Shown here: piece by piece, positions 648-16,684 of the stretch
Position numbering within the stretch: position 1 is the stretch's first letter
Layout: each line of letters starts with the position of its first letter
Assembly (NCBI GenBank): GCA_050506795.1
Contig: JBJHCF010000004.1
Span: 64,001-128,000 of the forward strand
Direction: 5' to 3'
Length of the DNA stretch: 64,000 bases
DNA from: Opitutia bacterium
GTDB taxonomy: Bacteria; Verrucomicrobiota; Verrucomicrobiia; Opitutales; T3Sed10-336
Notes under the pieces: model-generated
What the model was told of the DNA's origin: nothing
What the model saw: the letters and a program-made list of their open reading frames with translations, nothing else
The model's database searches: none
Made by a program: the position numbers and the translations under genes

Positions 648-1516
648 GCGTGGGAAATGGGTTCGATGTTGAAATGAAGGATGTCCTGGCGAACTCCGGT
701 ATCGCGTCGACCGCCGGGCAGACGGACCAGTTTGGCAGGATCCCATAGCGTGGGATCGGCCCCGAGAAAGACTGCGTGACGGAAGAAGCGGAGCTTCCCG
801 TATTCGGATAGTCCCTCCACGAGGAACCAGCCGTGCAGGGATTTGCCTCCGGACCAAACGACGAGGATCAGGGGCCTCTGCTTGGAATGAAGCGAGGAAA
901 GGATCGCTGCCTGTTCCCGAAGCGTTCCCCGGTCGAACTCGATAACTTGATACCGACGGCTGCGGGTCGCGTTATCGTGACAGCGCGGAGATGGTTTGCC
1001 GGACTGATTGATTCCGGTGGGTGCCGTCATCGCGTTGGCCACGATGAACTGCATGTTCGATTCGAGGCCGCGCCATTTTTCTCGCGGTTGTGTCTGGGCA
1101 CTGCGGGTGTCGAGCGCGAGGCACAATAGCGCGTCTGTTGGATAGAGGCGGTCAATGACTTCTTCGCTGGTCACATCGACTGGTGTGGACCCGAAAAGAA
1201 TAGGGCCAGCCTTCCGCCGATCCCAGGCATCCTGATTGAAAGGAGGCCACGGCAAGGCGGGTTTGGTCGGTCGCGGTAAAACCGGGCCTCCTGTTTCAAA
1301 CGCCCGCTCGACAGCGCGTGCGATCTCGGGCCGGAAGTCGCGGTCGCCCCATCGAGTGGCGACCGCTTCCAGAACGAGGCGGATCTTTTCCGGCGAGGCG
1401 TAGTGGCGAGCATTTCTTGCGACGGTGAAGAACCAAAGGTTTCGATTGCCGGGAGCGGGAGTCTGCTCAAGGAGTTCGGCTAGGGAGCGTGGTAAAGGAT
1501 CAAGTGTGGCCATCAT
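644..1516 (-). CDS. Archaeo-eukaryotic primase (AEP/RepB'-like)
   Basis: Motifs VIEFD, WSGGKSLHGWF, DPAKLVRLPG. Start reassigned to ATG 1516, which forms an ATGA overlap with the polymerase stop. Confidence 0.75.
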   Translation of the reverse strand: MMATLDPLPRSLAELLEQTPAPGNRNLWFFTVARNARHYASPEKIRLVLEAVATRWGDRDFRPEIARAVERAFETGGPVLPRPTKPALPWPPFNQDAWDRRKAGPILFGSTPVDVTSEEVIDRLYPTDALLCLALDTRSAQTQPREKWRGLESNMQFIVANAMTAPTGINQSGKPSPRCHDNATRSRRYQVIEFDRGTLREQAAILSSLHSKQRPLILVVWSGGKSLHGWFLVEGLSEYGKLRFFRHAVFLGADPTLWDPAKLVRLPGGRRDTGVRQDILHFNIEPISHA

Positions 1517-3348
1517 TTGCAGTAGGTTTGGGTTTCGATGCCTTCGGCAGCCACGGGCAAGCCGGGCATCCATGCTGGTGTCTGGGCGAGCAGGTTGGTC
1601 ACCTGCTCGACACCGATGCCGGAGTCTTCCGGCACTTCGCAGATCACTTCGTCGTGAACTGTCCAAAGGATGCGAATACCCGCGTCATGAATTCGGAGCA
1701 GGCCTTCGGCGAAAACATCCCGTGCGGTAGCCTGGACGAGGTTTTCGGTCAGCTTCCCGCCATACCAATGAAGACGGGGGCCGCCTCGTTCGGTTGCGGC
1801 CGTCAGTCCGTCCTCGTCGGCTACGTCGAAGTAGCGGATAACGCGATGCGACGGCAGGCGCATGTGAAACGTGTGACCAGCGTGGCGGCGCATCGATTCC
1901 TCCAGCGAGGCCCAGAAAGCAACCGTTGCAGGGTTGGCTTTGCGGAAGTCGTTCACCGTCGCCCGGGCCTCGGAATGGGAGATTTCGAGGCCGTAGATCT
2001 TGGCGAGGTTCTTGAAGGTCGCGGCGCCCGCGCCGTAGCCCAAGCCGATGACGCGGCATTTGGCGAGGAGGTAGAGACGGGGGTTTTCCTCCTTGAGCTT
2101 GCCGCCCGTCCACCCCATCGAAACCTCCGCGTGCGCCTGGTAGATAGGCAGGCCGTCGGCAATCTTTTCAAGAAGGTCGCGATCTCCGACCATCCACGCG
2201 AGCACTCGCGGTTCGATCTGCGAGAGGTCGGCGGTGATCAGCTTGTGCCCCGGGCGAGCACGAAGGCAGCGGCGTGGGTCGACGCCGTGAAGCGGCTCGC
2301 GGTTGAAGTTTTGGAAGTTCAATCCCGCGTCTCCGGCCCAGCGGCCGGTGGCGATGGCTCCGAAGTATTTCAGGCTGAAAGGGAGCGTGCTATCGGGGCG
2401 ACACCGGTCGCGCATTGTTTCGAGGAGCCGAAGCATCCGGTTCGACTTTCTCCAGTTGCGGATGTGGCCAATCCATGGAAAGCGTTCGCCGTAGCGATGC
2501 TCCCATTCTTCGCAGGCCGGATCGTCCTCGCTCGTCGAGGGTGGAGGCGGAAGATTGTGCCGCCCACATTCGATGGCGAGAGCCTTCGTGCTGGTCGGCT
2601 TTTCGCGGCCAGCCCACGGGAGAGCCCGTTCTGAATCCGCGCATTGTTGGGCGAGAATCGCAATGCCGGCGTCGACGGCTTTGCGGTCGAGATAAACGCC
2701 ATGCTCGCCCTGCTCCACTGTGAGACGCGAAAGACGCCGTTCCTGAGCGGGCCAGTGAAGCGAATACCCAAGCCATAGATCGCATGCGAGCTTGGCGTCT
2801 TCGAGCGCGTAGCCGAGAAGCTGGTCGTCCTGGAGCAAAGTGCGCGATTGGAGCCAATCGGTTCCCTTCATTGCTTTGCGAATGGCCTTGTTTGGCTTCC
2901 GTCCCAGAAGGTGCTGAGCAGCACCCTCCAGATTACGCGGGGCCTGGAGATAGACCGCGAGAGCGGCCGTGTCGTGCCATTCCCGCGGGGCGACATCAGC
3001 CGGGGCGATTCCGAGCTCCTGGAGCCGGGAGAAGACGGCCCGGTCGAAGCGGCTGTTGTGCGACACCCAAATGCACCCGGAGAATTCGTGCCATGGGCAT
3101 TCCTTTGGGTGACCAACGAATTGACCGTGAGGTCCCCAAAAAGAGACCAGGTAGCAATCGAATTTCTTGTCGGCGACGTAGCGGTCGACGCCAACGGCCT
3201 TCAGGTCGTAGCCCTTGCAATAGAAGGTCTCGGTGTCGAAACCGTAGACCCTATTGTCGGTAGCTGTAACCATATTCGGACCAGAGGTCCGTGATGGCAG
3301 ACTCAATTCCATCTGCGGCGAGGGTGTGAAGTTGGTGGAAGCGTTCAT
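1513..3348 (-). CDS. Phage-type family A DNA polymerase with 3'-5' exonuclease and no 5'-3' exonuclease
   Basis: ExoI FDTET, ExoII HNSRFD, ExoIII YALED; TGRW; motif A ADLSQIEPR; motif B AKCRVIGLGYG; ENLVQATARD; motif C VHDEV. Confidence 0.93.
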   Translation of the reverse strand: MNASTNFTPSPQMELSLPSRTSGPNMVTATDNRVYGFDTETFYCKGYDLKAVGVDRYVADKKFDCYLVSFWGPHGQFVGHPKECPWHEFSGCIWVSHNSRFDRAVFSRLQELGIAPADVAPREWHDTAALAVYLQAPRNLEGAAQHLLGRKPNKAIRKAMKGTDWLQSRTLLQDDQLLGYALEDAKLACDLWLGYSLHWPAQERRLSRLTVEQGEHGVYLDRKAVDAGIAILAQQCADSERALPWAGREKPTSTKALAIECGRHNLPPPPSTSEDDPACEEWEHRYGERFPWIGHIRNWRKSNRMLRLLETMRDRCRPDSTLPFSLKYFGAIATGRWAGDAGLNFQNFNREPLHGVDPRRCLRARPGHKLITADLSQIEPRVLAWMVGDRDLLEKIADGLPIYQAHAEVSMGWTGGKLKEENPRLYLLAKCRVIGLGYGAGAATFKNLAKIYGLEISHSEARATVNDFRKANPATVAFWASLEESMRRHAGHTFHMRLPSHRVIRYFDVADEDGLTAATERGGPRLHWYGGKLTENLVQATARDVFAEGLLRIHDAGIRILWTVHDEVICEVPEDSGIGVEQVTNLLAQTPAWMPGLPVAAEGIETQTYCK

Positions 3349-3354
3349 CGCAGG

Positions 3355-3579
3355 TTACCTTTTCCGGGGGTTGACGGTGCAATTTTCCTCCAGCGCCTGC
3401 CGGACGTTCGCCACGTCGAAGCGAACGAGGTGTCCGATTTTGACGTAAGGAATTTTCCTTTGCGCCTGCATCTGGCGAACCCAACGCAAGGAGGGTCTGC
3501 TGGTTTCGTCGAAAAGGGCTTCGAGGAGCCCGTGAGCGTCTACGAGTTTGGTCGATGGAATGTTGGTCGAAGTATTCAT
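3355..3579 (-). CDS. Excisionase-like small HTH protein
   Basis: 74 aa with SLRWVRQMQAQRKIPYVKIGHLVRFD, a typical Xis/HTH_17 winged-helix pattern. Confidence 0.75.
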   Translation of the reverse strand: MNTSTNIPSTKLVDAHGLLEALFDETSRPSLRWVRQMQAQRKIPYVKIGHLVRFDVANVRQALEENCTVNPRKR

Positions 3580-3696
3580 GATCTGGTGTCATTTATGAGA
3601 AAGTGATGAGTGGTTGGCGGTGGTCCCGATCACCCCCCGGCGTATGCCGGAGGATGACGGGCGTTCACCTATAGTCGGCGATACAACCAGCGGGCG

Positions 3697-3984
3697 TTAC
3701 AGCCGCAGGAAGTCGTCCGAATGAACGAGGATCCAGAAGCCGGGGCGGTTGCGTTCGGAGAGGCAAACGACCGGCGTTTTCTTTTCGGGAGTCGCGAGTT
3801 TCTTCGCCTCGTCCCAGGTGCGAATCGCGGCGAAGCGTTCACGCTGCTTACACTCGATGAAGAGCGTCGGGTGAAGCGTGTCGGAGCGGGTGAGCTTCGA
3901 GTTGCCTCCCGAGAGCGCGTTCCGCTCGGTCTTGAAGAACCTGGCGACGCGGCGCTCGAATGCCTTCCAGCACTTATCGGCCAT
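3697..3984 (-). CDS. Hjc-like Holliday junction resolvase / small PD-(D/E)xK nuclease
   Basis: KAFERRVA...SD...FIECK pattern. ATG 3984 is preceded by a GGAGG RBS and overlaps the upstream stop. Confidence 0.7.
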   Translation of the reverse strand: MADKCWKAFERRVARFFKTERNALSGGNSKLTRSDTLHPTLFIECKQRERFAAIRTWDEAKKLATPEKKTPVVCLSERNRPGFWILVHSDDFLRL

Positions 3985-4798
3985 TGGGTGCCTCCCTCCC
4001 GTGCGAGCGTGGATCGTATCCCTTCTGGTGGCGCCACATGGCGCATGCCATTTTGAATACTTCCCATTCAGCGAGGAGCTGCCGGGGCCCGTAGCTGACA
4101 ACCTCGACGCGGCCCGGCTCCGTTGTGCTGATGAACACGTTCGCGCCGTAGAGGCGTCCGAGGTTTTCTTCGCCCCAGTAAGTCGCGCCGTAGGCGGCGA
4201 TCTGCATTGCCTGCCCGTCGTAGGCGGTCACGGCGAGGCCGGGTTTGGTTTTGCGCGTCTTGAAGTCGATCACGCCAATCCCGTTGGTGCCGTAGCGGCA
4301 GGCGACATCCATTGTTCCGGCGAAGCCTTCCCTTTGGTTGACGAGGCAGAGCTCGCGCTCGACGAACTGGATCTGTTTGGCTTGCTGCCACGCGATCACC
4401 GGGCTGGTGTAGACTTCCAGATCCGGCGGGACCGGGACGCCGTCGAAGTGCTTTTCGAGAGCGTCATGGATCCGACTGCCGAGATCGGCGGCCTGCTCGA
4501 CCTGGGCGAAGGCTTCCTCGATGATGCGGTCGGCGAGATAGTCGTCGCTTTCGCCCTCGGTGCGGTTGAGCCGCATCGAGGCCAACGCGACCTGCTTCAT
4601 CTTCCACTTGTCGAGTTGTGGCTTGGCAAAAATCCCGAGGATCGAAGTGACGCTCGGATAGAGCCCGAGGCGTTTCGCGTCGCGGATCGTCGTCGGCCGG
4701 AGCCCATCACCGCCCGCCTTGGGCAGGCGGTGACAGGGCGTTCCGTCGGCTTTATACCAGTGCGAGGACTGGACTTGGTCTTTCTTGAGAACGGCCAT
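3974..4798 (-). CDS. Phage PD-(D/E)xK exonuclease (RecB-like)
   Basis: PSVTSIL, GSRIH, VEREL, AGTMD, IDFKT, QIAAY motifs. Confidence 0.85.
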   Translation of the reverse strand: MAVLKKDQVQSSHWYKADGTPCHRLPKAGGDGLRPTTIRDAKRLGLYPSVTSILGIFAKPQLDKWKMKQVALASMRLNRTEGESDDYLADRIIEEAFAQVEQAADLGSRIHDALEKHFDGVPVPPDLEVYTSPVIAWQQAKQIQFVERELCLVNQREGFAGTMDVACRYGTNGIGVIDFKTRKTKPGLAVTAYDGQAMQIAAYGATYWGEENLGRLYGANVFISTTEPGRVEVVSYGPRQLLAEWEVFKMACAMWRHQKGYDPRSHGREAPNGR

Positions 4799-4815
4799 GG
4801 TCGATTTCCTCCGGG

Positions 4816-5382
4816 TCAGAACGGGCAGTTATCGTCGGAATCGACTTCCGGGTTCCACGCGGCGTGAGGCGCGGGAGCCGGAGTCGCTTGTGGGGCCGGG
4901 ACGGCAGGCGTCTGCGGTGTCACCGGAGCCTTGGCGAAGGCCGCGAGCGGAAGGACCTGGCTCTTCAGCTGGTCGATCACCGGAGCAATGCCAACGATGT
5001 TGGCGAAGGTCCGGGTGCCGTCGCGGGAGGTCTTTTGGCCGACCGTGATCATCGCGCCCGCGCCCTTCAACTCGCAGTAGTCCCAGCCGTATTTCGGCGG
5101 GTGGCCGAGCCATGCGGTGAGGAACTTGAAGAGGTTCGACTTCGGCGATCCCGAAATGCGAAACTCGTGGGTCTGCACCCTGTAAATGCGGCCGTCCTGG
5201 CCGCGAAAGCCGAAGAGGAAACGGGTAATGTCGAGCGTTTCCTTCTCAGCAGGATTTTCGAACTTTGGGCGCTCAACGCCGAACTGGTCCTGGATTTCCA
5301 GGCATGTCGCGATTGAGGGCCCGGAGGGGGCGACTTCGGTGATGTCGAACCCGCTCGATTCTGGTTGTTTGAGTAGTGCCAT
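4816..5382 (-). CDS. Putative single-stranded DNA-binding protein, phage type
   Basis: Beta-rich core, Pro/Ala linker and acidic tail DSDDNCPF resembling the SSB DDDIPF tip; adjacent to the exonuclease. Confidence 0.65.
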   Translation of the reverse strand: MALLKQPESSGFDITEVAPSGPSIATCLEIQDQFGVERPKFENPAEKETLDITRFLFGFRGQDGRIYRVQTHEFRISGSPKSNLFKFLTAWLGHPPKYGWDYCELKGAGAMITVGQKTSRDGTRTFANIVGIAPVIDQLKSQVLPLAAFAKAPVTPQTPAVPAPQATPAPAPHAAWNPEVDSDDNCPF

Positions 5383-5467
5383 GATGATTTTGATTCATCA
5401 GGCAGACTCTCCATTGCTCGGGCGTCGTGCCGTCGCTTCCCGGTGAATCTGCCTTCACCGGAAAGGC

Positions 5468-5505
5468 GCTACTTTTGGAGTAGCAAATGCTACTTTTGGG
5501 GTAGC
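5468..5505. promoter_or_regulatory. Tandem palindromic operator-like sites GCTAC-N7-GTAGC
   Basis: GCTACTTTTGGAGTAGC (5468-5484) and GCTACTTTTGGGGTAGC (5489-5505), 21 bp apart, upstream of the replication operon. Confidence 0.65.
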
Positions 5506-5508
5506 ATT

Positions 5509-6807
5509 TTATTTTTTCTGAAAAAATTTCACGCGCCAGACCTCCCCGAGGGCGGGGGTGTATGTGAACTCATTTCCTTTGCGAACGCGGGGCGAAATGT
5601 ATTTTGCAGCGGGGGCGCAACGGGATTCGAGCGCGGCCAGAGCGACGTTGAGCGCTTTCGTGACGGCTTTGCGGGCACGTTCGTGGCGGCTGTCGACGCG
5701 GAGGCGCCGGCCTTTTCCCGTCACCTTGCGAAGATGGGCGCGGATTTCATCGAGTTCGGCTTCGATCTCGTCGGCCTCCATTTCGCGACCGGCGTCGCGG
5801 GCATCGTCAGCGGCGGCCTTCAGCTCGGCCACTTTGCGGGCGTAGGCAAGCTGGGCGGAGCGATCCGTCGCGGCGATGCCGCCGTCCCCTTCGGCGCTGG
5901 CAGCGAGCCCTTCGAGAGATGCAGTGACCGGTTCGGCGGGATCGAGATCCTCTTGCAGGTCGATCGGGCTGAAGGAGAGATCCGGTTGGTTGAGTAGCCG
6001 GGCGAGATACTGCATGCCGCGCATGTCGGGAATCGTTCCGTGGTGCCCCAGAAAGTTCATGCGCCACGTCGCTCCCTCGCAGGTCAGGGCGTATTCGGGC
6101 GGCGGTTCCTCCACTGCATTGAAGTCCGACAGGGACTCAGCCGGAGCGAACGAGGCACATAGCTCCCGCCATGCGGCGAGAAAGGAGTCTGTAGCGGCGA
6201 GGCCGCGGGGACCGAGCTCGAAGCCGCCGTCGAGGGCGAGCGGACGGCATCCTTTGCGTTGCAGAAGCGCGGCTACGTCAGGCGTGAGGTGCCGGAGGGT
6301 CGGGCTGAGGAGGATGAACGGAAAACGGTCCGCAAGGATCTGCCGTTCGACGAACGTTTTGAAATCCTGTGGATTGGATTGCCGGGTAAAAAGAATTTGC
6401 ACGGGAGCGGAAGCGGTTCCTGGAAGATTCCCCAGAAAGAGAGACGCTCCAGGCAGGCCGAGCGGGGTGGGATTGAACGGGAGTCGGAGAATCTTTCCCA
6501 CTTCCTCCATGATTCTCCGGTCCTGAGGTTCGTAACGGATCAGTTCGGCACGTTCGAATGAACGGCGGGGGCAGCGGCCTTCGTCGCAGATGCCGACGAG
6601 AGAGCCGTCCTGGTGCTCGACGATGCGATAGTTGCAGGCTGTCTGGCGACTGCGCTCGCAGGAAGCAATCGGCGACAGCCCCGGCACTGGCGCAAGGTAG
6701 CGCTGCATGAGGGGAAACTCGTCGCCGAGGGCGAGCTTCCAGACCGGCTCGCGGATCGGCCCGAGCCGCACATCAAGACATTTCCAAAACAAACTCTTGC
6801 TGCTCAT
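5509..6807 (-). CDS. Hypothetical protein with probable C-terminal DNA-binding domain
   Basis: C-terminus GMQYLARLL..P / ERARKAVTKAL...RVRKGNEFTYTP resembles HTH tails of transcription regulators; N-terminal Cys cluster (C...C...CDEGRC). Start uncertain (6807 or 6834). Confidence 0.6.
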   Translation of the reverse strand: MSSKSLFWKCLDVRLGPIREPVWKLALGDEFPLMQRYLAPVPGLSPIASCERSRQTACNYRIVEHQDGSLVGICDEGRCPRRSFERAELIRYEPQDRRIMEEVGKILRLPFNPTPLGLPGASLFLGNLPGTASAPVQILFTRQSNPQDFKTFVERQILADRFPFILLSPTLRHLTPDVAALLQRKGCRPLALDGGFELGPRGLAATDSFLAAWRELCASFAPAESLSDFNAVEEPPPEYALTCEGATWRMNFLGHHGTIPDMRGMQYLARLLNQPDLSFSPIDLQEDLDPAEPVTASLEGLAASAEGDGGIAATDRSAQLAYARKVAELKAAADDARDAGREMEADEIEAELDEIRAHLRKVTGKGRRLRVDSRHERARKAVTKALNVALAALESRCAPAAKYISPRVRKGNEFTYTPALGEVWRVKFFQKK

Positions 6808-7966
6808 GACCGGTAACCATTCCTCGTTCGACAAATCCGCGACGCATCAGCCATTCCTCGATCAGTTGGCTATCGTCGTCCCGCGTGTAGAGGGCGACAT
6901 TGGTCGGCTTGATCGTCACTGAGCGTGGCGTTGGGTTGTCCCGGAACCGGACCTTGAACGTCGCCTGGAGGAGGCGAGCCAGCGGCGGGATCTGAAATTC
7001 CCGTGACGCCATGGCATTGAAGAGGTCTTCGGCTTTATGGCTGCGGACTTCCCTTTCGAGATCTTCCAGTGCGTATTCCAGCTTCACGAGGCGGACCCAA
7101 TTCAGGCCGGGAACATCCACGCACTCGACCGAGGACGCGGCGTCGCGGCGGATCGGATCGAGGGTGTATTTGTTCGTTTCCGGAAAGTAATTCTCGCGGC
7201 CGAACAGCTCCAGGCTGAAAGTTGTGCGGTAGCGGTCGCGAAGCGTCGGCGTCCTGGCATTGATGCGAATTTCATTCGTCAGGCCGTCGAAGACCAGGAC
7301 GTCAAATTTCTCCGGCCGGAACAGGACGGAAGCGGCGCTGCCGTCGTCGGCGACGGTCGACTCACGCCGGTAACAGTCTCCGTGGCGGATCAGAAACCAC
7401 GTTTCGTGGTTGCGGGTGTAGGTGAAGATCCGGCAACCGGTCCCCATCCGACGCTTTTGAAACCAGACGTCGAGGGAGCGTTCGATCGCTTTGATCTGCG
7501 CATCGCCAGGTGGTTCGAATGCTTCTCCGCCTCCTCCCTCGGCACTGAAATACTCAAAGGCGCGGGCACGGAGTGGGAGTCGCTCGTAATGAACCGCCTT
7601 CGCTGCCGCCGGATCTACAATATACAGGAGCATCGCGGCCTCGGCGGCAGTGGCGTCGTTGGGCAATTGGAGGCCGGCGTTCTGACAGGCCTCATAGACG
7701 GCGTCTGCCGCATCGAGGGTGGCCAGCTCGCTGACGCAAAAGATGGCATCGATCAGCTCGCGGGGCGTTTCTTCGCTTGGGGACAGAAAGGTTTGGGTGA
7801 TGGCAGGGAGAACATTGGAATTCTCTGGGGCAGAAAGAGCATCCAGCTCAATCTGACGGGAATCGAAAAACCCCCGGTAGGGATCGAAAAACCTCCGTAA
7901 GGTTTCGCGATTTGTGGAGTGGAGCGCCTTGGGACGCGTGAAGATCAGGGAACTGAATGAGGACAT
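6773..7966 (-). CDS. Conserved hypothetical protein of prophage-like elements
   Basis: About 397 aa, overlapping the next gene; FLIRHG, FRPEKFDVLVFD, KYTLDP, RSVTIKP, EEWLMRRGF blocks recalled from an uncharacterised prophage family. Confidence 0.65.
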   Translation of the reverse strand: MSSFSSLIFTRPKALHSTNRETLRRFFDPYRGFFDSRQIELDALSAPENSNVLPAITQTFLSPSEETPRELIDAIFCVSELATLDAADAVYEACQNAGLQLPNDATAAEAAMLLYIVDPAAAKAVHYERLPLRARAFEYFSAEGGGGEAFEPPGDAQIKAIERSLDVWFQKRRMGTGCRIFTYTRNHETWFLIRHGDCYRRESTVADDGSAASVLFRPEKFDVLVFDGLTNEIRINARTPTLRDRYRTTFSLELFGRENYFPETNKYTLDPIRRDAASSVECVDVPGLNWVRLVKLEYALEDLEREVRSHKAEDLFNAMASREFQIPPLARLLQATFKVRFRDNPTPRSVTIKPTNVALYTRDDDSQLIEEWLMRRGFVERGMVTGHEQQEFVLEMS

Positions 7967-8197
7967 TGCCAAGCTGCTTCAAAAACCGTCCGGTCCTCTG
8001 ACACTCGCACCGCCCGTCAGCTTCGCGGGGCCGGCCCAATGGCCTCTGGATCAGCCAGACCCAGGGCGGAAAGTCACCTCGTCCGCCAGCGGCAATCCGT
8101 AGCCTCCGTTCCCTGGACGGGAGGGGTGGCGACTGCGGATCGCATTTGCCAAGGAAAACAAGGGATCTCGAAAGTTCCAGAAAAAAAGCGAGGATTC

Positions 8198-8228
8198 TTG
8201 ACACTCCCGGGCGCTCCGGTGATAGATC
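8198..8228 (+). promoter_or_regulatory. Possible sigma70 promoter of the metal operon
   Basis: Perfect TTGACA at 8198-8203; only a weak TGnTAGATC -10 match with long spacing. Confidence 0.3.
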
Positions 8229-8238
8229 TTCTTTTGAA

Positions 8239-8661
8239 ATGCGTCGCCTTGGGATGATAGTCCTTTCATTGCTATTCTCGGCTCTAGCGTTGGTTGGGGG
8301 TGCCGAGGGAGCGATGCTGTGTCTTCATCAGGCAGGGGCGGTTCACTTGGGGGCTGCGCCCATTGAGAGGGGCGGCGGGGAAGCGGGGTGCGTCAACGAG
8401 CTTGGCGAAGCCTGCGACCGAAGCGCGGAGCACCCGTGCGACTGGTGCGTCGATGTGGAGATTCGGGGGATCGATCTGGCTCAGCTTCGTTTGGATGAAT
8501 CTGTCGAAGTGACGGTCCCCGTGGCGGCAACGGGGGAAATGGTCTCCGCCGTCGAATGGGGCTTGCCATCCGCTGTACTCTTGAATTGCGCCCCTGCGCG
8601 TGCGCCTCCTGCCCTTTCCGAGGCGTTGATCGTCGCCAAGACGACGGTTCTGCTTTTGTGA
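8239..8661 (+). CDS. CzcI/DUF2946-like exported Cys/His-rich leader with RAPP motif
   Basis: ATG 8239; signal-peptide-like N-terminus MRRLGMIVLSLLFSALALVG; LCLHQAGAVH and HPCDWCVD; RAPP at 8599-8610; first gene before czcC. Confidence 0.7.
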   Translation: MRRLGMIVLSLLFSALALVGGAEGAMLCLHQAGAVHLGAAPIERGGGEAGCVNELGEACDRSAEHPCDWCVDVEIRGIDLAQLRLDESVEVTVPVAATGEMVSAVEWGLPSAVLLNCAPARAPPALSEALIVAKTTVLLL

Positions 8662-8760
8662 GTTCCTGAATTCGGGTTTGAGCGGCCTTTTACCCAAGGC
8701 CGTTTTCCAACTGCTTCGGCGTATCGACGCCGGATCTTTCTCCGAATCCAGGAACTTTTT
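8661..8760 (+). promoter_or_regulatory. Three-way-junction cis RNA structure occluding the czcC RBS
   Basis: 8661-8675 pairs with 8742-8756 (14/15); inner hairpins at 8682-8703 and 8715-8734; U-run follows; CAGGA SD-like sequence lies in the 3' arm. Confidence 0.65.
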
Positions 8761-8761
8761 C

Positions 8762-10048
8762 ATGAATGCAGCTATACGTTTTTCCTTATTTTCATTTCCT
8801 TCTTTTCTAGCGACCGTCCTCGTGGCGGCGGCTTCTCCAGCTTTCGGCGAGGAGGCCGTCCTGACTGTGGACGAACTGGTCGCGGAAGTGCTCGGGAGCA
8901 ATCCTGAACTCGCGATCTACGAGGCCGAAATCGCCGCGGCCCGCGGCGAGCGGCGTCAGTCGGGGCGATGGGCGAACCCGGAGTTTTCCTTGGAGGCGGG
9001 TCATCAGCGGATCCGGGGGAGCGAAGGGGCCGGAGCGGCCGAGGGCTTGGCCTGGGCCGCATCGGTGGCTCAGCCGATCGAGTTTCCGGGGCGGCTGGCG
9101 CTGCGCAAGGCGATCGCCGACCGGAACACGGAGTTGGCCAATTTGGGCCTGGAAAACTTCCGACGGGTGCTGGAGAACCAAGTTCGTTCGCTGGCCTATT
9201 CGCTCTATGCGGCACGAGGGTCGGCGGATGCCGCCGACGATGTGGCCGCCCGCGCCCGGGAGTTGACGCAGGTTGTGCTTCAGCGCGAGGTCGGCGGTAT
9301 CTCCCCGTTGCTGGAAAGCCGCATTCTGGAGAGCAGCGCCCTGACCTTGGAACAGCGGCGGCAGGAGGCGCGGCGCGTTTATCAACGGGCCTTAATCGCG
9401 CTGAACCAGTTGCGGGACGCGCCCGCCGAGACGCCGGTGAGACTGGCGGAGGCTCCCTTGGAATTCCCCGAACTTCCTCCCGTGCCGGAGCTCGTCAGCG
9501 GCGCCTGGAGAAATTCGTTTGAGGCGCGGGCGAGGCAGGTGGAGTTGGAGCAGCAGGGCTTTCGGGTGCGCCTGGAGAGGAATGAGCGCTATCCAACCGT
9601 CACGGCGGGGCCTTTTATCTCGCAGGATAGAGCGGGCGAGAAGGAGACAGTGGCCGGGGTGAGCGTTTCGTTCGCTCTGCCGTTATGGGATCGAAACGAG
9701 GGCAATATCGATGCCTCGCGGGCGCGGCTACGGCAGGCTGAGGCGTCGCTGCTCGTGACGCGGCGCGAACTGGAACGGCGCGTAGTGGAGCGGGCATTGA
9801 ACTATCAGTCCGCGAGGCAGGCCCTGGCGGAGTTGAGACCGGAGGCGATCTCTGAGTTCGAGGAGGCGGCCGAACTGGCGGAGCGTCATTATCGGTTAGG
9901 GGCAATCCCGATCAGCACGTATTTGGAGATGCAAACCGCCTACCTCGACGCTCTGGACGCTGTGCTCGGCCTGCGGCAGCAAACGCTGGAGAGCCGACTG
10001 GAACTGGAAATTTTGACGGGAAACTTTGAGAAGGGAACTGAACGATGA
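8762..10048 (+). CDS. czcC: TolC-family outer membrane factor, CzcC-like
   Basis: Signal peptide, NPEL and NPEF repeats, VSVSFALPLWDRNEGNI, YRLGAI; first structural gene of a CBA operon. Confidence 0.88.
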   Translation: MNAAIRFSLFSFPSFLATVLVAAASPAFGEEAVLTVDELVAEVLGSNPELAIYEAEIAAARGERRQSGRWANPEFSLEAGHQRIRGSEGAGAAEGLAWAASVAQPIEFPGRLALRKAIADRNTELANLGLENFRRVLENQVRSLAYSLYAARGSADAADDVAARARELTQVVLQREVGGISPLLESRILESSALTLEQRRQEARRVYQRALIALNQLRDAPAETPVRLAEAPLEFPELPPVPELVSGAWRNSFEARARQVELEQQGFRVRLERNERYPTVTAGPFISQDRAGEKETVAGVSVSFALPLWDRNEGNIDASRARLRQAEASLLVTRRELERRVVERALNYQSARQALAELRPEAISEFEEAAELAERHYRLGAIPISTYLEMQTAYLDALDAVLGLRQQTLESRLELEILTGNFEKGTER

Positions 10049-10812
10049 ATTCTATTTTGAAAATGATTTTTTTGAGCGCTGCCACGATAGGCATTGCGCT
10101 GGCGGTAAGCGGGTGTGCGAAGACAGAGGGTGCCGATCAGGATCATGAGGCGGAGCAGGCGCAGGATCATTCCGGTAACTGGGTGTTCGACGAGGGCCGT
10201 GGCGTCAGGCTGACCGAGGCCGGGAGGAATGTTGCTGGCATCGAATTGGCGGAAGCGGTTTTCGCCGAAGGCGGCAACGGCACGATAACCGCGATGGGAC
10301 AGGTTTTCGCCGTGGACCGGAGCCGCGGCACGGCGCGGGCAAGTGTGGCCTTGTCGGCGCGGCGGGCAAATGGAATTGAGCCAGGCGCGCCAGTTAACGC
10401 TGGAACACGACCGGGCGACTTGCACCTTGCCGGGCACGTAGAGCGAGTCGATCGACAGGCGGTTCGGGTGACCGGTCAGGTCGAGGTGATCGTGAGTGTC
10501 CCCGCAGCTGAGGCTCACTTGCGCGAAGGCTCGTTTCTAAGCTTCAGCTTCGATCAACCAGGCGCGCAGGGCGACGAGATGTTACGCATCCCCGCCTCGG
10601 CTCTTCTTCCGACGGCTCGCGGTGATTTCGTTTACGTGGTGAATGGAAACCATTTTTTTCGGTCCCCGGTGCAAACGGGGCGGAAAAGCGGCGATTTCAT
10701 CGAGATCGAAGACGGGTTGTTCGAAGGCGACGTGGTGGTGTCGGCGGGTAAAAAGCATCTCTGGCTGATCGAGCTGCAGGCGATCAACGGAGGTGAAGCC
10801 TGCGCCGACTGA
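10045..10812 (+). CDS. Short periplasmic adaptor (CzcB-like lipoprotein)
   Basis: Lipobox VSGC; C-terminal IPASAL...VYVV...VQTG...IEIEDGLFEGDVVV membrane-fusion-protein motif; only 255 aa. Confidence 0.75.
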   Translation: MNSILKMIFLSAATIGIALAVSGCAKTEGADQDHEAEQAQDHSGNWVFDEGRGVRLTEAGRNVAGIELAEAVFAEGGNGTITAMGQVFAVDRSRGTARASVALSARRANGIEPGAPVNAGTRPGDLHLAGHVERVDRQAVRVTGQVEVIVSVPAAEAHLREGSFLSFSFDQPGAQGDEMLRIPASALLPTARGDFVYVVNGNHFFRSPVQTGRKSGDFIEIEDGLFEGDVVVSAGKKHLWLIELQAINGGEACAD

Positions 10813-10830: not shown

Positions 10831-13800
10831 ATGCTGAACAAACTAATTGAGTTCTCCATCCGGCAGCGCGGCTTCGTTCTCCTGCTGACGGTCGTATTGA
10901 TCGTCGCCGGGATCTGGTCAGCCTACCATCTCCATGTGGATGCGGTGCCGGATATCACCAGCACGCAAGTGCAGATCAACACGGCAGTGCCCGCGTTGGC
11001 GCCCGAGGAAATCGAGCAACTGGTGACATTCCCCATCGAGAGCCGCATGTCGGGCATGCCGGGCCTCGTGGAGTTGCGCTCGCTTTCGCGTCCGGGTTTG
11101 TCGCAGGTGACGATGACATTCGCCGACGGCTCGGACGTATATCGTTTGCGGCAACTCGCGATGGAGAGGCTTCAGGAGGCCATGGATGAGATTCCGGCCG
11201 GCCTTCAGCCGACGCTTGCGCCGATCAGCACGGGGCTGAGCGAAATCTTTTACTATGCGGTCGGTTTTGCCGAGGACGCACCGAATGTGCCGGAGAGCGA
11301 ATACGAGCGACTGCTGGAGCTATCGCAGATCCAGGAATATACGGTAAAGCCGCTCTTACGCGCGACGGCGGGCCTCGCCGAGGTGAACACTTCCGGAGGT
11401 TACGAGAAAAAGATTCTTGTTCAGCCCGATCCCGTGCGCCTCACCCAGCTAGGTCTCACTTTCGACGAGTTCGCCGAACGGCTGAAAGGCGGCTTCGTCA
11501 ATGTCGGCGGCGGCCTGCTGGAGGTGGGCGGTGAACAAGTGGTGATCCGTTCGAATTCGAGGATGACCCGAAGCGAGGAAGTTGCAGGCCTGCCTTTGAA
11601 GTTCGGGGCGCAGGTGAATCCGATTCTGGTGGGCGACGTGGCCGAAATCGTGGTTGGGTCGAGCATCCGGACCGGCGCGGCCACCATCAATGGAGAAGAG
11701 GCGGTGCTGGGAGCGGCGATCATGATGGCCGGGGAAAACAGTCGCGTCGTAGCCCGCGCGGTGAGCCAGCGTCTGGCGGAGATCCAAAATCGCATGCCGG
11801 AAGGTGTGGTTATTACCCCGCTTTACGATCGGGGCGATTTGATCGACGCCACGATCTCGACCGTGCGCCGCAATCTCACTCATGGAGCCGTTCTGGTCAT
11901 CGTCGTTTTGTTCGCGATGCTGGGCAACATTCGGGCGGCGCTGATTGTCGCGGCGGTCATCCCGCTTTCCATGCTGGCGGCATTCATTGGCATGACACTG
12001 GCGGGCGTCTCGGGAAATCTGATGAGCCTTGGCGCGATCGACTTCGGGCTCATCGTGAGCGGCGCGGTCATTGTCGTGGAAAACTGCATGCGACGGCTCG
12101 GCCTCCTTCGCCACCGGATCGGGAGAGATCCCCGCGCCGAGGAACGGCGGGCCGAGGTTCTCGCCGCTTCACGTGAGGTCGCCAAACCGATGTTCTTTGG
12201 TGTGGCCATCATCACCATCGTCTATGTGCCGATCCTGGCGCTGACGGGCATCGAGGGGAAAATGTTTCACCCGATGGCGCTGACTGTCATGTTCGCCCTA
12301 ACGGGCTCGCTGCTTTTGGGCCTGACTTTCGCGCCCGCGCTGAGTTCCTGGGTGATCGCCGGGAGAATGACCGGCGAAGATAGTTTCCTCGTCCGCGCTT
12401 TGCGCTGGATCTACCATCCGATTCTTCGATTCGCGGTTCGCTTTCCTGTGGCCGTGGCGGTGGGAGCGGCGGCTCTTTTCGCTCTAGCGGTGCTGACGTT
12501 TCTGAGGTTGGGGGCGGAGTTTATCCCGCAGCTCGACGAAGGCTCGCTCGCCGTGCAGATGGTCCGCAGCAACAGCGTCGGCATTCAAACGTCGTTGGAG
12601 CTGCAACAGCAGGCGGAGCGCCTGCTGCTGGAGGAGTTCCCCGAGGTCCGACAGATCTTCTCGCGCATCGGGACGGCGGAGATCGCCACCGATCCGATGG
12701 GCCCGAACGTTTCCGATACGTATGTTCTGTTTCATCCGCAGGAAACCTGGCGCGAGATCAACGACCGGCGAGCACGGAAGGACGATCTGGTTGCCATGAT
12801 GCAGCGGGTCCTCGACCGGAATATTCCCGGACAAGTGGTTTTGTTTTCCCAACCGATCCAGCTTCGTTTCAACGAAATCATGGCCGGCGCCCGCGCCGAC
12901 ATCGCTGTGAAAATTTTCGGTGAGGATCTGGAAACGCTGGAGGAGCAGGCGTTCGCCGTCCGCGATGTGCTACGCACTATTCCCGGCGGAGGCGACGTGG
13001 AATTCGACGCCATGGGGCGGGTGCCGATGCTGGAGATCGTGCCGGATCGGGAGGCGATGCGGCGACTGAATATTCATCCCGACGAAATCAACCGCGTCAT
13101 CCAGACCGCACTGGCGGGAAGAGAGGCGGGACTTTTCATCGATGGGAACCGGCGATTTCCGGTCGTCGTGCGGCTGCCCGAAGCCCAACGCCACGATTTC
13201 GACGCGATCAGGGACCTGCCGGTGCGGACGGATGGCGGCGGCATTGTCCGGCTGGGCCAGGTTGCCGACTTGCGAGTCGAGGACCGCGTGGGAACAATCA
13301 CGCGGGAAATGGCTGAGCGTCGGGCGGCCATCCTGATCAATCTGCGCGGGCGCGATACCGAAAGCTTCGTGCGCGAAGCGGAGGCGCGCTTGCGCGATGA
13401 AGTGGTCTTGCCTCCCGGATACGCGATCGAATTTGGCGGGCAGTTTGAAAACCTGCAACGGGCGCGGGCCCGGCTGGCTGTGGTTGTTCCGATTGCATTG
13501 TGCCTGATCTTTTTCCTAATCTTTTCCTCCACGGGAAGCATGCAGCGGTCTCTCGTCATCTTTACGGGCGTGCCGTTTGCGGTGACTGGCGGGGTCTTCG
13601 CCCTCTGGCTGCGAGACATGCCGTTCAGTATCTCGGCCGGGATCGGCTTTATCGCTTTGAGCGGGATCGCCGTGATGGATGCGCTCGTGCTCGTGAACTG
13701 CTTCAACGACTTGCGGCGAGAGGGCAGACCGTTGCGGGAGGCCGTGATGGAGGGGGCGATGATGCGCCTGCGGCCCGTGTTGATGACCTCGCTGGTCGCC

Positions 13801-14055
13801 GGCCTTGGCTTTGTGCCGATGGCATTCGCTACCACCCTTGGCGCCGAGGTGCAGCGTCCGCTGGCGACGGTTGTGATTGGCGGCATCCTCTCCTCGACTC
13901 TTTTGACACTTCTCGTCCTGCCGGGCCTCTATCTAATCACCGAGCGTCGCGACAATCGCAATACCGGAAAACTTTCAGAGAACGCAACGTCGGCTTCCGT
14001 CGTCAGTCACGACCATACAGAAGCAATCATTTCCCAACAAAAGACCACAAAATGA
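10831..14055 (+). CDS. czcA: Heavy-metal efflux RND permease, CzcA/CusA family
   Basis: DAVPDIT, NLMSLGAIDFG, EGKMFHPMA, GAEFIPQLDEG, RLRPVLMT, EVQRPLATVVIGG. Confidence 0.95.
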   Translation: MLNKLIEFSIRQRGFVLLLTVVLIVAGIWSAYHLHVDAVPDITSTQVQINTAVPALAPEEIEQLVTFPIESRMSGMPGLVELRSLSRPGLSQVTMTFADGSDVYRLRQLAMERLQEAMDEIPAGLQPTLAPISTGLSEIFYYAVGFAEDAPNVPESEYERLLELSQIQEYTVKPLLRATAGLAEVNTSGGYEKKILVQPDPVRLTQLGLTFDEFAERLKGGFVNVGGGLLEVGGEQVVIRSNSRMTRSEEVAGLPLKFGAQVNPILVGDVAEIVVGSSIRTGAATINGEEAVLGAAIMMAGENSRVVARAVSQRLAEIQNRMPEGVVITPLYDRGDLIDATISTVRRNLTHGAVLVIVVLFAMLGNIRAALIVAAVIPLSMLAAFIGMTLAGVSGNLMSLGAIDFGLIVSGAVIVVENCMRRLGLLRHRIGRDPRAEERRAEVLAASREVAKPMFFGVAIITIVYVPILALTGIEGKMFHPMALTVMFALTGSLLLGLTFAPALSSWVIAGRMTGEDSFLVRALRWIYHPILRFAVRFPVAVAVGAAALFALAVLTFLRLGAEFIPQLDEGSLAVQMVRSNSVGIQTSLELQQQAERLLLEEFPEVRQIFSRIGTAEIATDPMGPNVSDTYVLFHPQETWREINDRRARKDDLVAMMQRVLDRNIPGQVVLFSQPIQLRFNEIMAGARADIAVKIFGEDLETLEEQAFAVRDVLRTIPGGGDVEFDAMGRVPMLEIVPDREAMRRLNIHPDEINRVIQTALAGREAGLFIDGNRRFPVVVRLPEAQRHDFDAIRDLPVRTDGGGIVRLGQVADLRVEDRVGTITREMAERRAAILINLRGRDTESFVREAEARLRDEVVLPPGYAIEFGGQFENLQRARARLAVVVPIALCLIFFLIFSSTGSMQRSLVIFTGVPFAVTGGVFALWLRDMPFSISAGIGFIALSGIAVMDALVLVNCFNDLRREGRPLREAVMEGAMMRLRPVLMTSLVAGLGFVPMAFATTLGAEVQRPLATVVIGGILSSTLLTLLVLPGLYLITERRDNRNTGKLSENATSASVVSHDHTEAIISQQKTTK

Positions 14056-14510
14056 ATACACCATACGTCATGAAACTAAAGAACGCACTTCTCGTATCTT
14101 TCGCATTGATGCTTGCGGGAGGAGCGGTCCTTGCCGCCGCTGAAAAGAGACAGCCCGGGCCGAACGGCGGGCTACTGCTGAAAACGGAGCCTCGAGCCGA
14201 GTTTTTTGTCAATAAGGACCGAAAGATCGAGATCACCTTTCTCGACGCTGAGCTAGAACCGGTGCCCCTGGAGCAACGAAACGTGCGGGTGACGGCAATG
14301 GCCCCTTCAGGACGAAAAATCCTGGAGTTTGACCGGAAGGAAAACGTCTTTATTTCCAAGGACCCCCTGCCGGACGGCGACGGCTACACCGTCGTTGCCC
14401 AGATCTGGCAGAAGGCGGATGACCGGCCGGAGAACTTCCGGATTGTGTATGAAGACTACGTCTGCGGCGGGTGCGACCTGGTGGAGTACGCCTGCATCTG
14501 CGATGACTGA
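14052..14510 (+). CDS. Exported putative metal-binding protein with C-terminal CxxC...CxC
   Basis: ATG 14052 overlaps the czcA stop (ATGA); signal peptide, GPNGG, tail YVCGGCDLVEYACICDD. Confidence 0.75.
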   Translation: MNTPYVMKLKNALLVSFALMLAGGAVLAAAEKRQPGPNGGLLLKTEPRAEFFVNKDRKIEITFLDAELEPVPLEQRNVRVTAMAPSGRKILEFDRKENVFISKDPLPDGDGYTVVAQIWQKADDRPENFRIVYEDYVCGGCDLVEYACICDD

Positions 14511-14530: not shown

Positions 14531-16684
14531 ATGAGCGAAATACCCGCAGGCCGGGCTGGGAAAGAGACAGTCCTCGAAATCGAGGGGATGGATTGCTCCG
14601 AAGAAGTGAAGCTACTGGAGAATGTTCTCGGCGGTGTGGCGGGTGTCTGCTATGTGCGGGCGAATCTTGTAATGAACCGGATCACCGTTATTCATGACGA
14701 GCCGGTTGAAATATCGGATCTGGTTGCAGCGATCCAAACCACCGGTATGAAAGCCCACCCACCAAAACGGGCGGGCACGGACCGGCTTGCGCGCCGCAGT
14801 GATCGGGGGCGATTGATGGCGGTCGCGCTGTCGGGCGCGCTCGCCATCTCCGGGCTTGTTCTGCAATGGACAGCCGCGGCCCCGGAGGCGGTGAGAATTG
14901 CGCTGTTTGCCGGAGCGATAGCTTCGGGCGGCTGGTATATCGTCCCCAAGGCGGTGGGAGCGGCCCGCCGGATGACTCCCGATATGAACCTGCTGATGAC
15001 GGTGGCTGTGGCAGGCGCGGCCCTCATCGGCGAATGGGGAGAAGGGGCCATCGTCGTCTTTCTGTTCGGACTCGCCGAATTGCTCGAAGCGATGAGCGTG
15101 AGTCGAGCTCGCCGGGCCATTCAGTCGTTGATGGCACTCAGTCCCCAAACGGCGCTGGTGAAAAGGGGTGAGCGATTCGAGGAACTGCCTGCTGAGTCGG
15201 TTCAAATCGGCGAAGTGATCGCCGTGCAGAACGGCGCCCGGATTCCGCTCGACGGGGTGGTCCTCTCCGGTTCGTCAGCCGTCGATCAAGCAGCGATCAC
15301 CGGTGAATCGATGCCAGTTTCAAAATCTTCAGGCGACGAGGTGTTCGCCGGAACGCTCAATGGCGAGGGCGCGATGGAGATCCGCGTCACCCGCGAGGCG
15401 TCCGGTTCGACACTGGCGAAGATCATTAAGCTGGTCGAGGAAGCGCAGGAGCAAAAAGCGCCATCGCAACGGTTCGTCGATGTATTTGCGAAATATTACA
15501 CGCCGATTGTGATGCTCCTGGCGGGGGCGGTTTTTCTCCTGCCGCCTCTGCTCCTCGGCGCACCGTGGGAGACTTGGTTTTACCGATCCCTCGTTCTGCT
15601 CGTGATCGCCTGCCCGTGCGCGCTCGTCATCTCTACCCCTGTTTCCATCGTTTCGGCGTTGACCGCCATGGCCCGCCGGGGAGTTCTCGTTAAAGGAGGC
15701 GCTTTTCTCGAATCGGTGGGAAAACTGCGGGCATTGGCCGTGGACAAGACCGGAACGATCACGCAGGGACGACCGACGGTGACGGAGGTGATTTCCCTCA
15801 ATCGCAACCAGGAAGGGGATGTCCTCCGAATCGCGGCGGCGATCGATGTGCATTCGCAGCACCCGCTGGCAAAAGCGGTGGTCGAGACAGCCGAACGGCG
15901 CGGCATTACCTATCCCCGTGGCGCGGATTATCGCGCCCGGACCGGGAGTGGGGCCGAGGCGACGATCGATGGCCATCGTTACTTTGTCGGCAACCATCGC
16001 CTCGCGCATGAATTGGGCGTCTGTTCGCCGCAGGTAGAGGGGATTCTCGCAGAGATCGAACAACGCGGTGAATCCGTAGCGGTTGTCGGGCACATGCCCC
16101 ACGACGATTGCCCGGGCGACATCCTCGGCGTCGTGGCGCTGGGAGATGCCATTCGGCAGGATGCTGCCGAGGCGGTACGGGCACTTCATCAGGCGGGGGT
16201 TCGCAATGTCGTGATGTTGAGCGGCGACAATCAGAAGACAGTGGACGCGATCTCGCGGCAAGTCTGCATCGACCAGGCCTGGGGGAACCTGCTGCCGGGC
16301 GACAAAATCGCCCGCGTGCGGGAGCTGGTGAAACGGCATCACCACGTCGGCATGATTGGCGATGGGGTGAACGATGCTCCCGCCATGGCTGCCGCAACAG
16401 TTGGAATCGCCATGGGCGCGGCGGGCACGGATACCGCGATTGAGACGGCGGACGTTGTCCTGATGGAAGACGACCTGAGCAAGGTCGCCGAAACCATCCA
16501 CCTCGGCCGGCGGACCGTCAGAATCATTCAATTCAACATCGCTTTGGCTATTGGAGTCAAAGCTCTCTTTCTGGCGCTCACGATTGCCGGTTATGCCAGC
16601 CTATGGCTGGCCATAGCCGCCGATACCGGCGCGACGTTAATTGTCATTTCTAACAGCCTGAGGTTGCTGCGAACTCGAGAATGA
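14531..16684 (+). CDS. cadA: P1B-type heavy-metal ATPase (CadA/ZntA, Zn/Cd/Pb)
   Basis: GMDCSEE metal-binding domain, TGES, CPC, DKTGT, HP, GDGVND, TM7 Lys and TM8 ADTG. Confidence 0.93.
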   Translation: MSEIPAGRAGKETVLEIEGMDCSEEVKLLENVLGGVAGVCYVRANLVMNRITVIHDEPVEISDLVAAIQTTGMKAHPPKRAGTDRLARRSDRGRLMAVALSGALAISGLVLQWTAAAPEAVRIALFAGAIASGGWYIVPKAVGAARRMTPDMNLLMTVAVAGAALIGEWGEGAIVVFLFGLAELLEAMSVSRARRAIQSLMALSPQTALVKRGERFEELPAESVQIGEVIAVQNGARIPLDGVVLSGSSAVDQAAITGESMPVSKSSGDEVFAGTLNGEGAMEIRVTREASGSTLAKIIKLVEEAQEQKAPSQRFVDVFAKYYTPIVMLLAGAVFLLPPLLLGAPWETWFYRSLVLLVIACPCALVISTPVSIVSALTAMARRGVLVKGGAFLESVGKLRALAVDKTGTITQGRPTVTEVISLNRNQEGDVLRIAAAIDVHSQHPLAKAVVETAERRGITYPRGADYRARTGSGAEATIDGHRYFVGNHRLAHELGVCSPQVEGILAEIEQRGESVAVVGHMPHDDCPGDILGVVALGDAIRQDAAEAVRALHQAGVRNVVMLSGDNQKTVDAISRQVCIDQAWGNLLPGDKIARVRELVKRHHHVGMIGDGVNDAPAMAAATVGIAMGAAGTDTAIETADVVLMEDDLSKVAETIHLGRRTVRIIQFNIALAIGVKALFLALTIAGYASLWLAIAADTGATLIVISNSLRLLRTRE

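Follow-up and report, generated by a model that had tools for sequence, protein, structure and literature searches.

A candidate metal-sensing leader peptide whose stop codon may gate the translation of a czcCBA-like efflux operon in Opitutales

The window analysed here is a stretch of 64,000 nucleotides (nt) from an Opitutia bacterium of the order Opitutales (GenBank assembly GCA_050506795.1, contig JBJHCF010000004.1, positions 64,001 to 128,000), and the element under study is a leader gene (8239..8661, + strand) coding for 140 amino acids (aa), together with the spacer that separates it from the czcC-like gene of a heavy-metal efflux operon. We propose that leader and spacer form a cis-acting translational switch that is decided at the leader stop codon, with an upstream RAPP motif as an accessory; to this reading we assign a probability of about 0.45. 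Its core, an exported metal-binding leader followed by a ribosome-binding site (RBS) gated at the stop, is shared with other readings, and of this core we are fairly sure.

According to this proposal, the czcC RBS would by default be hidden by a stem, P1, whose fold is computed and conserved, and would be freed, as computed, only by a ribosome standing on the last one or two leader codons. The leader would be exported co-translationally, and a ribosome at the stop would hold the CxxCxD core of the leader about 70 residues from the peptidyl-transferase centre, a published distance at which periplasmic folding pulls the nascent chain and which we apply here to the leader. The tail V-L-(R/L)-(I/L)-stop may slow or arrest termination. 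How long the ribosome stays, and hence the amount of pump, might be set by the Cys/His core, according to whether this is metal-bound or, without metal, folded or disulphide-bonded. The likely sign would be that of the CutF leader described below, i.e., metal would lengthen the stay and turn the efflux pump ON. RAPP would represent an accessory, lineage-limited pause 17 codons earlier, or a part of the same tunnel contact. Periplasmic folding exerts its force about 70 residues from the peptidyl-transferase centre, while about 50 residues reach the SecY exit (bioRxiv 2021.02.06.430026), and peptides that arrest termination exist (PMC10987492; PMC13183943).

The spacer RNA and the ribosome position that opens it

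P1 closes a three-way junction that folds in the spacer on the + strand. Its 5' arm, complementary to the Shine-Dalgarno (SD) sequence and hence anti-SD, lies at 8661..8675 and begins at the last base of the stop codon; its 3' arm (8742..8756) carries the SD-like CAGGA (8749-8753), 8 nt ahead of the ATG at 8762. The arms pair at 14 of 15 positions, with one A-C mismatch, and four U stand 3' of the stem. Folding places two hairpins between them, P2 (8682..8703) and P3 (8715..8734), and two such inner hairpins recur in 50 of 61 homologous spacers. All these elements, as well as the 140-aa open reading frame (ORF), its Cys/His clusters and RAPP, were found where an earlier sequence-only reading had placed them. 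Its claim that the spacer folds almost completely and hides the RBS stands as well: the fold of 8655-8770 reaches -47.2 kcal/mol (z -5.25), and none of 200 shuffles was as good. The same reading had taken the G-U pairs to favour the + strand, which was not borne out, as the opposite strand folds equally well (-46.1 kcal/mol for minus vs -45.1 for plus); the strand of the RNA is set by its place between stop codon and RBS in the homologues, not by energy.

The homologous spacers come from the 63 leader family members described below; two of them, longer than 200 nt, were left unscored (n = 61), and in the choice of start codons an ATG preceded by an SD-like word was preferred, two starts being set by hand. 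The z score is below -3 in 55/61 spacers. At least six of nine RBS bases pair with bases just past the stop in 55/61, compared to 27 out of 325 background spacers, i.e., co-directional spacers of similar length from the window's genome, delimited by crude ORF calls. The anti-SD core starts 1-6 nt past the stop in all the 44 loci, out of 63, that hold both anchor words, and CAGG lies 7 nt ahead of the ATG in 36 of these 44. Four flanking positions of P1 beat all 2000 column shuffles in covariation (37, 42, 41, and 29 of 44 paired, respectively); the inner P1 pairs are weaker, and column shuffles ignore kinship. RNAalifold, run on 14 aligned spacers, recovered P1 alone, with nine pairs, three of which have changes on both sides. 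Covariation, suggested earlier as a check, thus supports P1 and does not extend to P2 and P3, whose support comes from independent folding, since the spacers are too divergent to be aligned there.

No Rfam covariance model matched across the spacer, with E values allowed up to 5. Both blastn and a covariance model built from the family gave one copy of the element in the genome; 13 of the 14 matches of this model in 150 genomes, training sequences included, lie directly behind a leader stop. The model is insensitive: it missed the genome of locus L131 (L numbers are our handles for loci) and, under strict filters, many family loci.

The position that a ribosome must take to open this structure was then computed. 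A ribosome footprint ends at +15 or +11, counted from the P-site codon, and the mRNA was masked as far as either edge in 54 loci, spacers longer than 130 nt and three without an RBS stem being excluded. With the +15 edge, the median cost of opening the RBS was 12.5, 13.0, 12.6, and 11.8 kcal/mol at codons -30, -17, -6, and -3, respectively, then 4.0 at codon -1 and 2.3 at the stop. A cost below 4 kcal/mol was found in 0/54 loci at the RAPP position and in 45/54 at the stop; in the window, the cost passes from 17.9 at RAPP to 2.9 kcal/mol at the stop. These data agree with the earlier claim that a ribosome at RAPP is too far upstream and that one at the stop opens the RBS. Since the cost drops only at the stop, the ON state would correspond to a ribosome at the stop, and an arrest at RAPP could not by itself switch the pump on. 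A SecM-like model, in which the arrest at RAPP opens the RBS through an alternative fold, was also considered and rejected, there being no drop at codon -17 (median difference between -30 and -17 of -0.2 kcal/mol). Outside this set, 11 distant loci were examined in the phylum of L131; the opening cost falls from 16.7 to 4.3 kcal/mol in L173, from 9.6 to 5.5 in L176, from 11.7 to 8.4 in L172, and from 8.3 to 6.1 in L171.

Some natural variants of the spacer were also observed. Two loci have long spacers (L007, about 220 nt, and L022, about 310 nt) in which the anti-SD arm has decayed, or other structured DNA has displaced it. The contigs of a relative that is about 96% alike to the window break at 8749-8757; their loose ends are inverted, and 5 bases are apparently duplicated (runs X5 and X8, from one study). 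The break is apparently an insertion, similar to an insertion sequence (IS), in the 3' arm of P1, parting the czcC RBS from the anti-SD arm; the element is presumably of the IS1380 type, and the insertion may be a natural deregulation of czcC. The spacers of such relatives (runs X1, X3, X5, and X8) differ from that of the window between 8680 and 8727 in at least six listed positions: three turn G-U into Watson-Crick pairs, two break loop-adjacent pairs, and one falls in a loop, none of those listed being in P1. As these runs are contigs of the about 96%-alike relatives and also cover the upstream DNA, they show neither transcription nor attenuation.

The leader protein, its tail and its relatives

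The leader belongs to an unannotated family. Its N-terminus is basic and then hydrophobic (aa 1-25, 8239..8313), with a hydropathy of 1.7-2.3 per 19-residue window and a predicted helix at residues 2-19, and is predicted to be an export signal, possibly a cleavable one, or a membrane anchor. Two putative metal-ligand clusters follow: LCLH (aa 27-30, 8317..8328), whose C28 is invariant in the family alignment A2, and, in the same alignment, CDWCVD (8437..8454; CDWC at aa 67-70), of which many homologues keep only the second Cys (CxD) instead of CxxC. Residue C70 stands at a distance of 70 residues from the C-terminus and of 53 from the Pro of RAPP that would occupy the P site. The linker that comes next (8455..8598) is poorly conserved and mostly of low predicted local distance difference test (pLDDT) score, and has a fixed length, as a putative ruler would. 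RAPP (aa 121-124, 8599..8610), here a putative elongation-arrest motif, lies 50 residues after CxxC and is followed by 16 sense codons and TGA. The C-terminal tail reads TTVLLL-stop (8641..8661; family consensus T-V-L-R-I/L-stop) and is a candidate termination-arrest or dwell motif. The AlphaFold2 model of the leader, which is of low confidence (pLDDT 58, predicted template-modelling score 0.39), has an N-terminal helix, three strands and a disordered C-terminal half; Foldseek returned no match for it at E 0.001.

No Pfam or NCBIfam family was found for the leader, the L25 matches being far below cut-off. DUF2946, which had been put forward because of CruR, is not supported: PF11162 matched neither the leader nor, in a six-frame search of the genome, the locus, and touched only 1 of 24 aligned relatives (E 0.033). 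A search for relatives with alignment A1 returned none. The ESM Atlas gave nameless clusters at 0.96-0.97 and one cluster with 23% DUF2946 at 0.94, sharing few features with the leader, and we regard these as leads only.

A profile of the leader matched in 47 of 301 genomes of the order and in 17 of 301 genomes of the phylum, three of the latter from outside the order. The 86 loci thus collected gave 67 distinct matches, 65 of them with a stop codon, and 63 were kept after leaving out L060 and L065, which have no tail and no recognised next gene and are apparently broken. Among the 65, the next gene codes for an OEP protein in 59 cases, a PALP enzyme in two, and HupE/UreJ in two, and was not recognised in two. 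A DNA pattern combining tail and stem gave 70 matches, 16 of which have a proper gene layout (15 in Verrucomicrobiota, mostly Opitutales, and one in Rubricoccaceae); the other 54 were treated as chance.

The sequence-only reading had made its proposal depend on the conservation of both RAPP and the stem; the stem is conserved, as reported above, and RAPP only in part. The 63 members comprise 37 with R[AG]PP, six with QAPP, one with REPP, and 19 with nothing of the kind. Where present, R[AG]PP sits 16-18 residues from the C-terminus (36/37), with a Cys 49-53 residues ahead of its R (34/35). In a quick tree, with the RAPP columns left in, the RAPP label changes 10 times, at least three of which are forced by strong branches; a history of one gain and several losses is compatible with this.

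Two protein features, both missed by the earlier reading, are shared more widely: the conserved tail and the fixed distance between Cys and stop. The tail positions are occupied by V in 47, L in 56, R in 50, and I, L or V in 59 of the 63 members. Its codons vary synonymously, with all six Arg and all four Val codons in use, and because they vary so freely, the tail appears to be selected as protein. The conserved Cys lies 66-78 residues from the C-terminus in all 61 scorable members (standard deviation 1.9), with or without R[AG]PP alike. The two Cys clusters are less evenly spaced from each other, the standard deviation being 4.9 in the members and 6.8 in the distant relatives. The latter are 35 proteins retrieved with divergent members; none has RAPP, and they share a VVLLI-type tail and a Cys-to-end distance of 69-71 (standard deviation 0.6). 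A variable, disordered linker of fixed length looks like a co-translational ruler.

Some members depart from the common type. The leader of L100 (1607-2065, minus strand), a locus among those matched by the covariance model, which stands before an OEP gene and a pump closely related to those of the window, resembles the family only in its C-terminal part; it has another N-terminal half (with CTLC), and then RAPPP, VVLLL-stop, a similar spacing and the same RNA. This likeness, limited to the C-terminal part and joined to the same RNA, would imply that tail and RNA travel as a module, and suggests that sensor domains are exchanged on it. L054 and L061 are His-rich and Cys-free members with RAPP, tail and stem, located before HupE/UreJ_2 genes rather than pumps. 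L043 and L051 are RAPP-less members before a PALP gene (cysteine-synthase-like by eye), in which the post-stop stem leaves the RBS uncovered.

The stop-gated switch and the alternative explanations

Several points weigh against a switch decided at the stop. The arrest, the metal binding and the direction of the response are all things that we infer. With the +11 edge, the median cost at the stop is 5.0 kcal/mol and only 20/54 loci fall below 4 kcal/mol. Among the distant loci, the cost falls by less than 1 kcal/mol in L174, L179, and L181 (L180 being nearly equal to L179), and the post-stop stem does not reach the RBS in L175, L177, and L178. The 35 distant proteins form 10 clusters at 50% identity, and profiles that contain the tail favour matches with a tail and a similar spacing. 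The tail of the window has L, and not the usual R, at -2. HupE/UreJ proteins are usually tied to Ni/Co homeostasis, and an opposite sign may be required for the two members that head such genes and have RAPP, tail and stem. Lastly, R[AG]PP is kept at a fixed position in 37/63 members and is a strong arrest motif in the four peptide contexts tested (PMC12992588); being both potent and present at this locus, it may stop the ribosome first.

This last point leads to the main rival, which we consider rather unlikely: an arrest at RAPP would hold the ribosome 42 nt before it reaches the stem (OFF), and a pull due to metal would release it towards the stop, where P1 melts (ON), the tail merely lengthening the dwell or marking the finished protein for removal. 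The computed state of the RBS, which is closed with a ribosome at RAPP and opens with one at the stop, and the presence of R[AG]PP in 37/63 members fit it, as do CruR, which arrests at RAPP and for which Cu has been proposed as the releaser (PMC9426467; PMC12992588), and the position of the Cys, about 53 residues from the P site at RAPP, near the 50 required for the SecY exit (45 in CruR). It has to account, though, for the 26 members without R[AG]PP, whose Arg is required for arrest (PMC12992588) and most of which keep Cys, ruler and stem, for the lack of R[AG]PP in 35/35 distant relatives, and for a tree with 10 changes of the RAPP label, at least three of them forced. Moreover, any place more than about four codons ahead of the stop would suffice for RAPP in this model, yet 36/37 members have it at a distance of 16-18. 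At this locus, a two-stall hybrid of stop gating and release from RAPP is quite possible.

An improbable alternative is that every terminating ribosome opens the RBS, with the leader acting in trans as a CzcI-like periplasmic metal-binding accessory whose hydrophobic C-terminus is a ligand of a PDZ protease or of a partner, a known type of C-terminal motif. No arrest is required for the RBS to open at the stop, loci that lack an RBS stem (L174, L179, and L181) still have the tail, and genes for a sigma factor of the extracytoplasmic function (ECF) type and for a periplasmic-sensor-like protein 5' of the L002 leader indicate that transcriptional control can exist. For a protein acting in trans, or a degron, there would be no need to hold a variable, unstructured linker of 70 residues at constant length (standard deviation 0.6-1.9), nor to keep RAPP, which is depleted relative to AAPP in ordinary proteins (PMC12992588); CutF, moreover, acts in cis only. 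Transcription attenuation, with P1 and the U run as a terminator blocked by a ribosome at the stop, or with Rho as for CruR (PMC9426467), appears very improbable: at least five U follow CAGG in 24/46 loci, the window included, but the run is of three or fewer in 18/46, doubles as the SD-to-AUG spacer (7 nt in 36/44), and P1 was not among the picks of a terminator scan. That a small mobile element left the spacer behind as a relic, without any regulatory role, is hardly credible. The inverted arms of the spacer lie about 85 nt apart and the IS-like end in the related strain starts with similar letters; against this stand its single copy in the genome, the location of 13/14 model matches directly behind a leader stop, and the fact that in L173 and L176 the same stem is made of unrelated sequence.

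Our preferred reading is thus that of a switch decided at the stop, RAPP being accessory to it. Somewhat more tentatively, this reading can be extended to an undescribed, multi-phylum class of metal-sensing leaders in which a non-proline tail would arrest termination, a 70-residue ruler would read a periplasmic Cys core and a three-way junction would gate efflux pumps, RAPP having been added 17 codons upstream in the window's order to give a two-stall leader. If this is true, RAPP-less members would have been missed by surveys based on prolines or on RAPP.

Genomic setting and comparison with known systems

The sequence TTGACA (8198..8203, + strand), 41 nt before the leader start, is a probable -35 box, and TTGAC or TTGAA occurs 35-48 nt 5' of an N-terminal ATG/GTG in 37/63 homologues; a promoter consensus scan did not have it among its picks. 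There is no SD ahead of the leader start (8198-8241), and the leader mRNA is probably near-leaderless.

Downstream, all on the + strand, lie genes for a CzcC-like outer membrane factor (OEP; 8762..10048, PF02321, E 1e-35), a short CzcB-like membrane-fusion protein of 255 aa (10045..10812; TIGR01730 E 4e-21 and TIGR00999 E 9e-14, both below cut-off), for which only the C-terminal half of the resistance-nodulation-division (RND) adaptor model was matched, and a CusA/CzcA heavy-metal RND pump (10831..14055; TIGR00914, 1185.6 bits vs a cut-off of 701). They are followed by genes for a secreted-type 152-aa protein with a Cys-rich C-terminus (14052..14510, overlapping the czcA stop, without Pfam match) and a ZntA-like P1B ATPase of the Zn/Cd/Pb type (14531..16684; TIGR01525 and TIGR01512 above cut-off). 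Codon 410 of the pump (12058-12060) codes for Ser at the position of the second Asp of transmembrane segment 4 (D408 of CzcA), which is listed as kept in mono- and divalent heavy-metal efflux pumps (PMC2891726). The same Ser in a 91%-identical orthologue (L182) excludes an assembly error; the proton relay of this CusA/CzcA-type pump is possibly altered or inactive.

The absence of a MerR or ArsR regulator nearby, already noticed in the sequence-only reading, was confirmed, as the PF13411 and PF01022 matches of the genome sit on other contigs. On the minus strand, a divergent cluster (644-7972) of otherwise unknown ORFs codes for a DNA polymerase of family A and a nuclease of the PD-(D/E)XK type; the cluster is phage- or island-like, and the metal operon may lie at its edge. 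In a genome of the same family, the ORF for the periplasmic-sensor-like protein and the ECF sigma gene 5' of the leader, both identified by eye, span L002:303-1366.

The closest precedent is CutF-cutO of Rhodobacter capsulatus, in which metal turns a detoxification gene ON through a ribosome melting an SD stem (PMC9973294; bioRxiv 10.1101/2025.02.05.636593); the logic described earlier as the inverse of that of CruR is therefore less new than it had seemed. As in CutF, an exported-type Cys/His leader would act in cis, the SD of the next gene lies in a stem that a ribosome at the leader end can melt, and a metal-detoxification gene is expected to be turned ON. In size and position, too, the leader falls within the limits set for CutF-like proteins, being an ORF shorter than 150 aa, first in the operon, with a same-strand neighbour 100 nt on (limit 1000 nt). 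Moreover, CutF-like leaders most often have an OEP/CzcC gene as their neighbour (PMC9973294), and leaders before CzcC-type genes are thus an already described class. The leader family differs in having no Pfam DUF2946 match, a non-proline V-L-R-I tail, a conserved three-way-junction RNA and a fixed stretch of about 70 residues from Cys to stop, prolines being absent in some members. The CutF-like survey retained PP within 15 residues of the C-terminus, and the PP of the window (123-124 of 140) falls outside this range, although the logos of Fig. S6 of that survey may include V-L-R-I-type tails (PMC9973294). In summary, the leader would work like CutF, yet it lacks DUF2946 and keeps its PP beyond the filter.

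In CruR of Bordetella pertussis (BP2923, DUF2946/PF11162), RAPP lies three residues from the end and 45 ± 2 after CxxC (PMC9426467); CruR acts through Rho and turns an importer off (PMC9426467), with arrest at RAPP (PMC12992588). The window leader shares with it a signal-like N-terminus, CxxC, a fixed CxxC-to-RAPP spacing, RAPP, and the place as first gene of a metal operon; in the leader family, however, RAPP is dispensed with by some members and otherwise stands 16-18 residues before the C-terminus, about 50 residues separate it from CxxC, and the target would be the RBS stem of an exporter gene. Like the RAPP/RGPP arrest peptides in general (ApdA, ApdP, and CruR), the leader is a small exported-type product of a first gene and carries R[AG]PP towards its C-terminus. 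The termination-arrest peptides (PMC10987492; PMC13183943), which are exported or membrane leaders, resemble the leader in their conserved last residues, stalling with the stop in the A site being demonstrated there and proposed here; unlike it, they precede sec/yidC genes, with other tails and no metal-ligand core. CzcI of Cupriavidus metallidurans is likewise a small exported gene product encoded before czcCBA, with no C-terminal proline motif (PMC9973294). In NCBIfam, which may or may not include a CzcI model, 0/24 aligned members matched such a model at E 0.1, the CzcI sequence itself not being aligned. A literature search, with most subscription papers outside its reach, retrieved no paper on the leader family, the V-L-R-I tail or the three-way-junction RNA.

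The two metal-sensing leader peptides tested so far, CruR and CutF, have opposite logic, and the surveys of their relatives were both selected on proline motifs. In the family described here, one and the same RNA switch occurs naturally with RAPP and without it, which would test the proline motif against the stop-codon tail as the output, and also whether nature uses the periplasmic force distance of 70 residues that was measured on artificial constructs. If the tail does not arrest termination, the leader is one more of the CutF-like type, with an unusually well conserved RNA; if it does, it represents a new arrest motif and a regulator-free induction of heavy-metal pumps.

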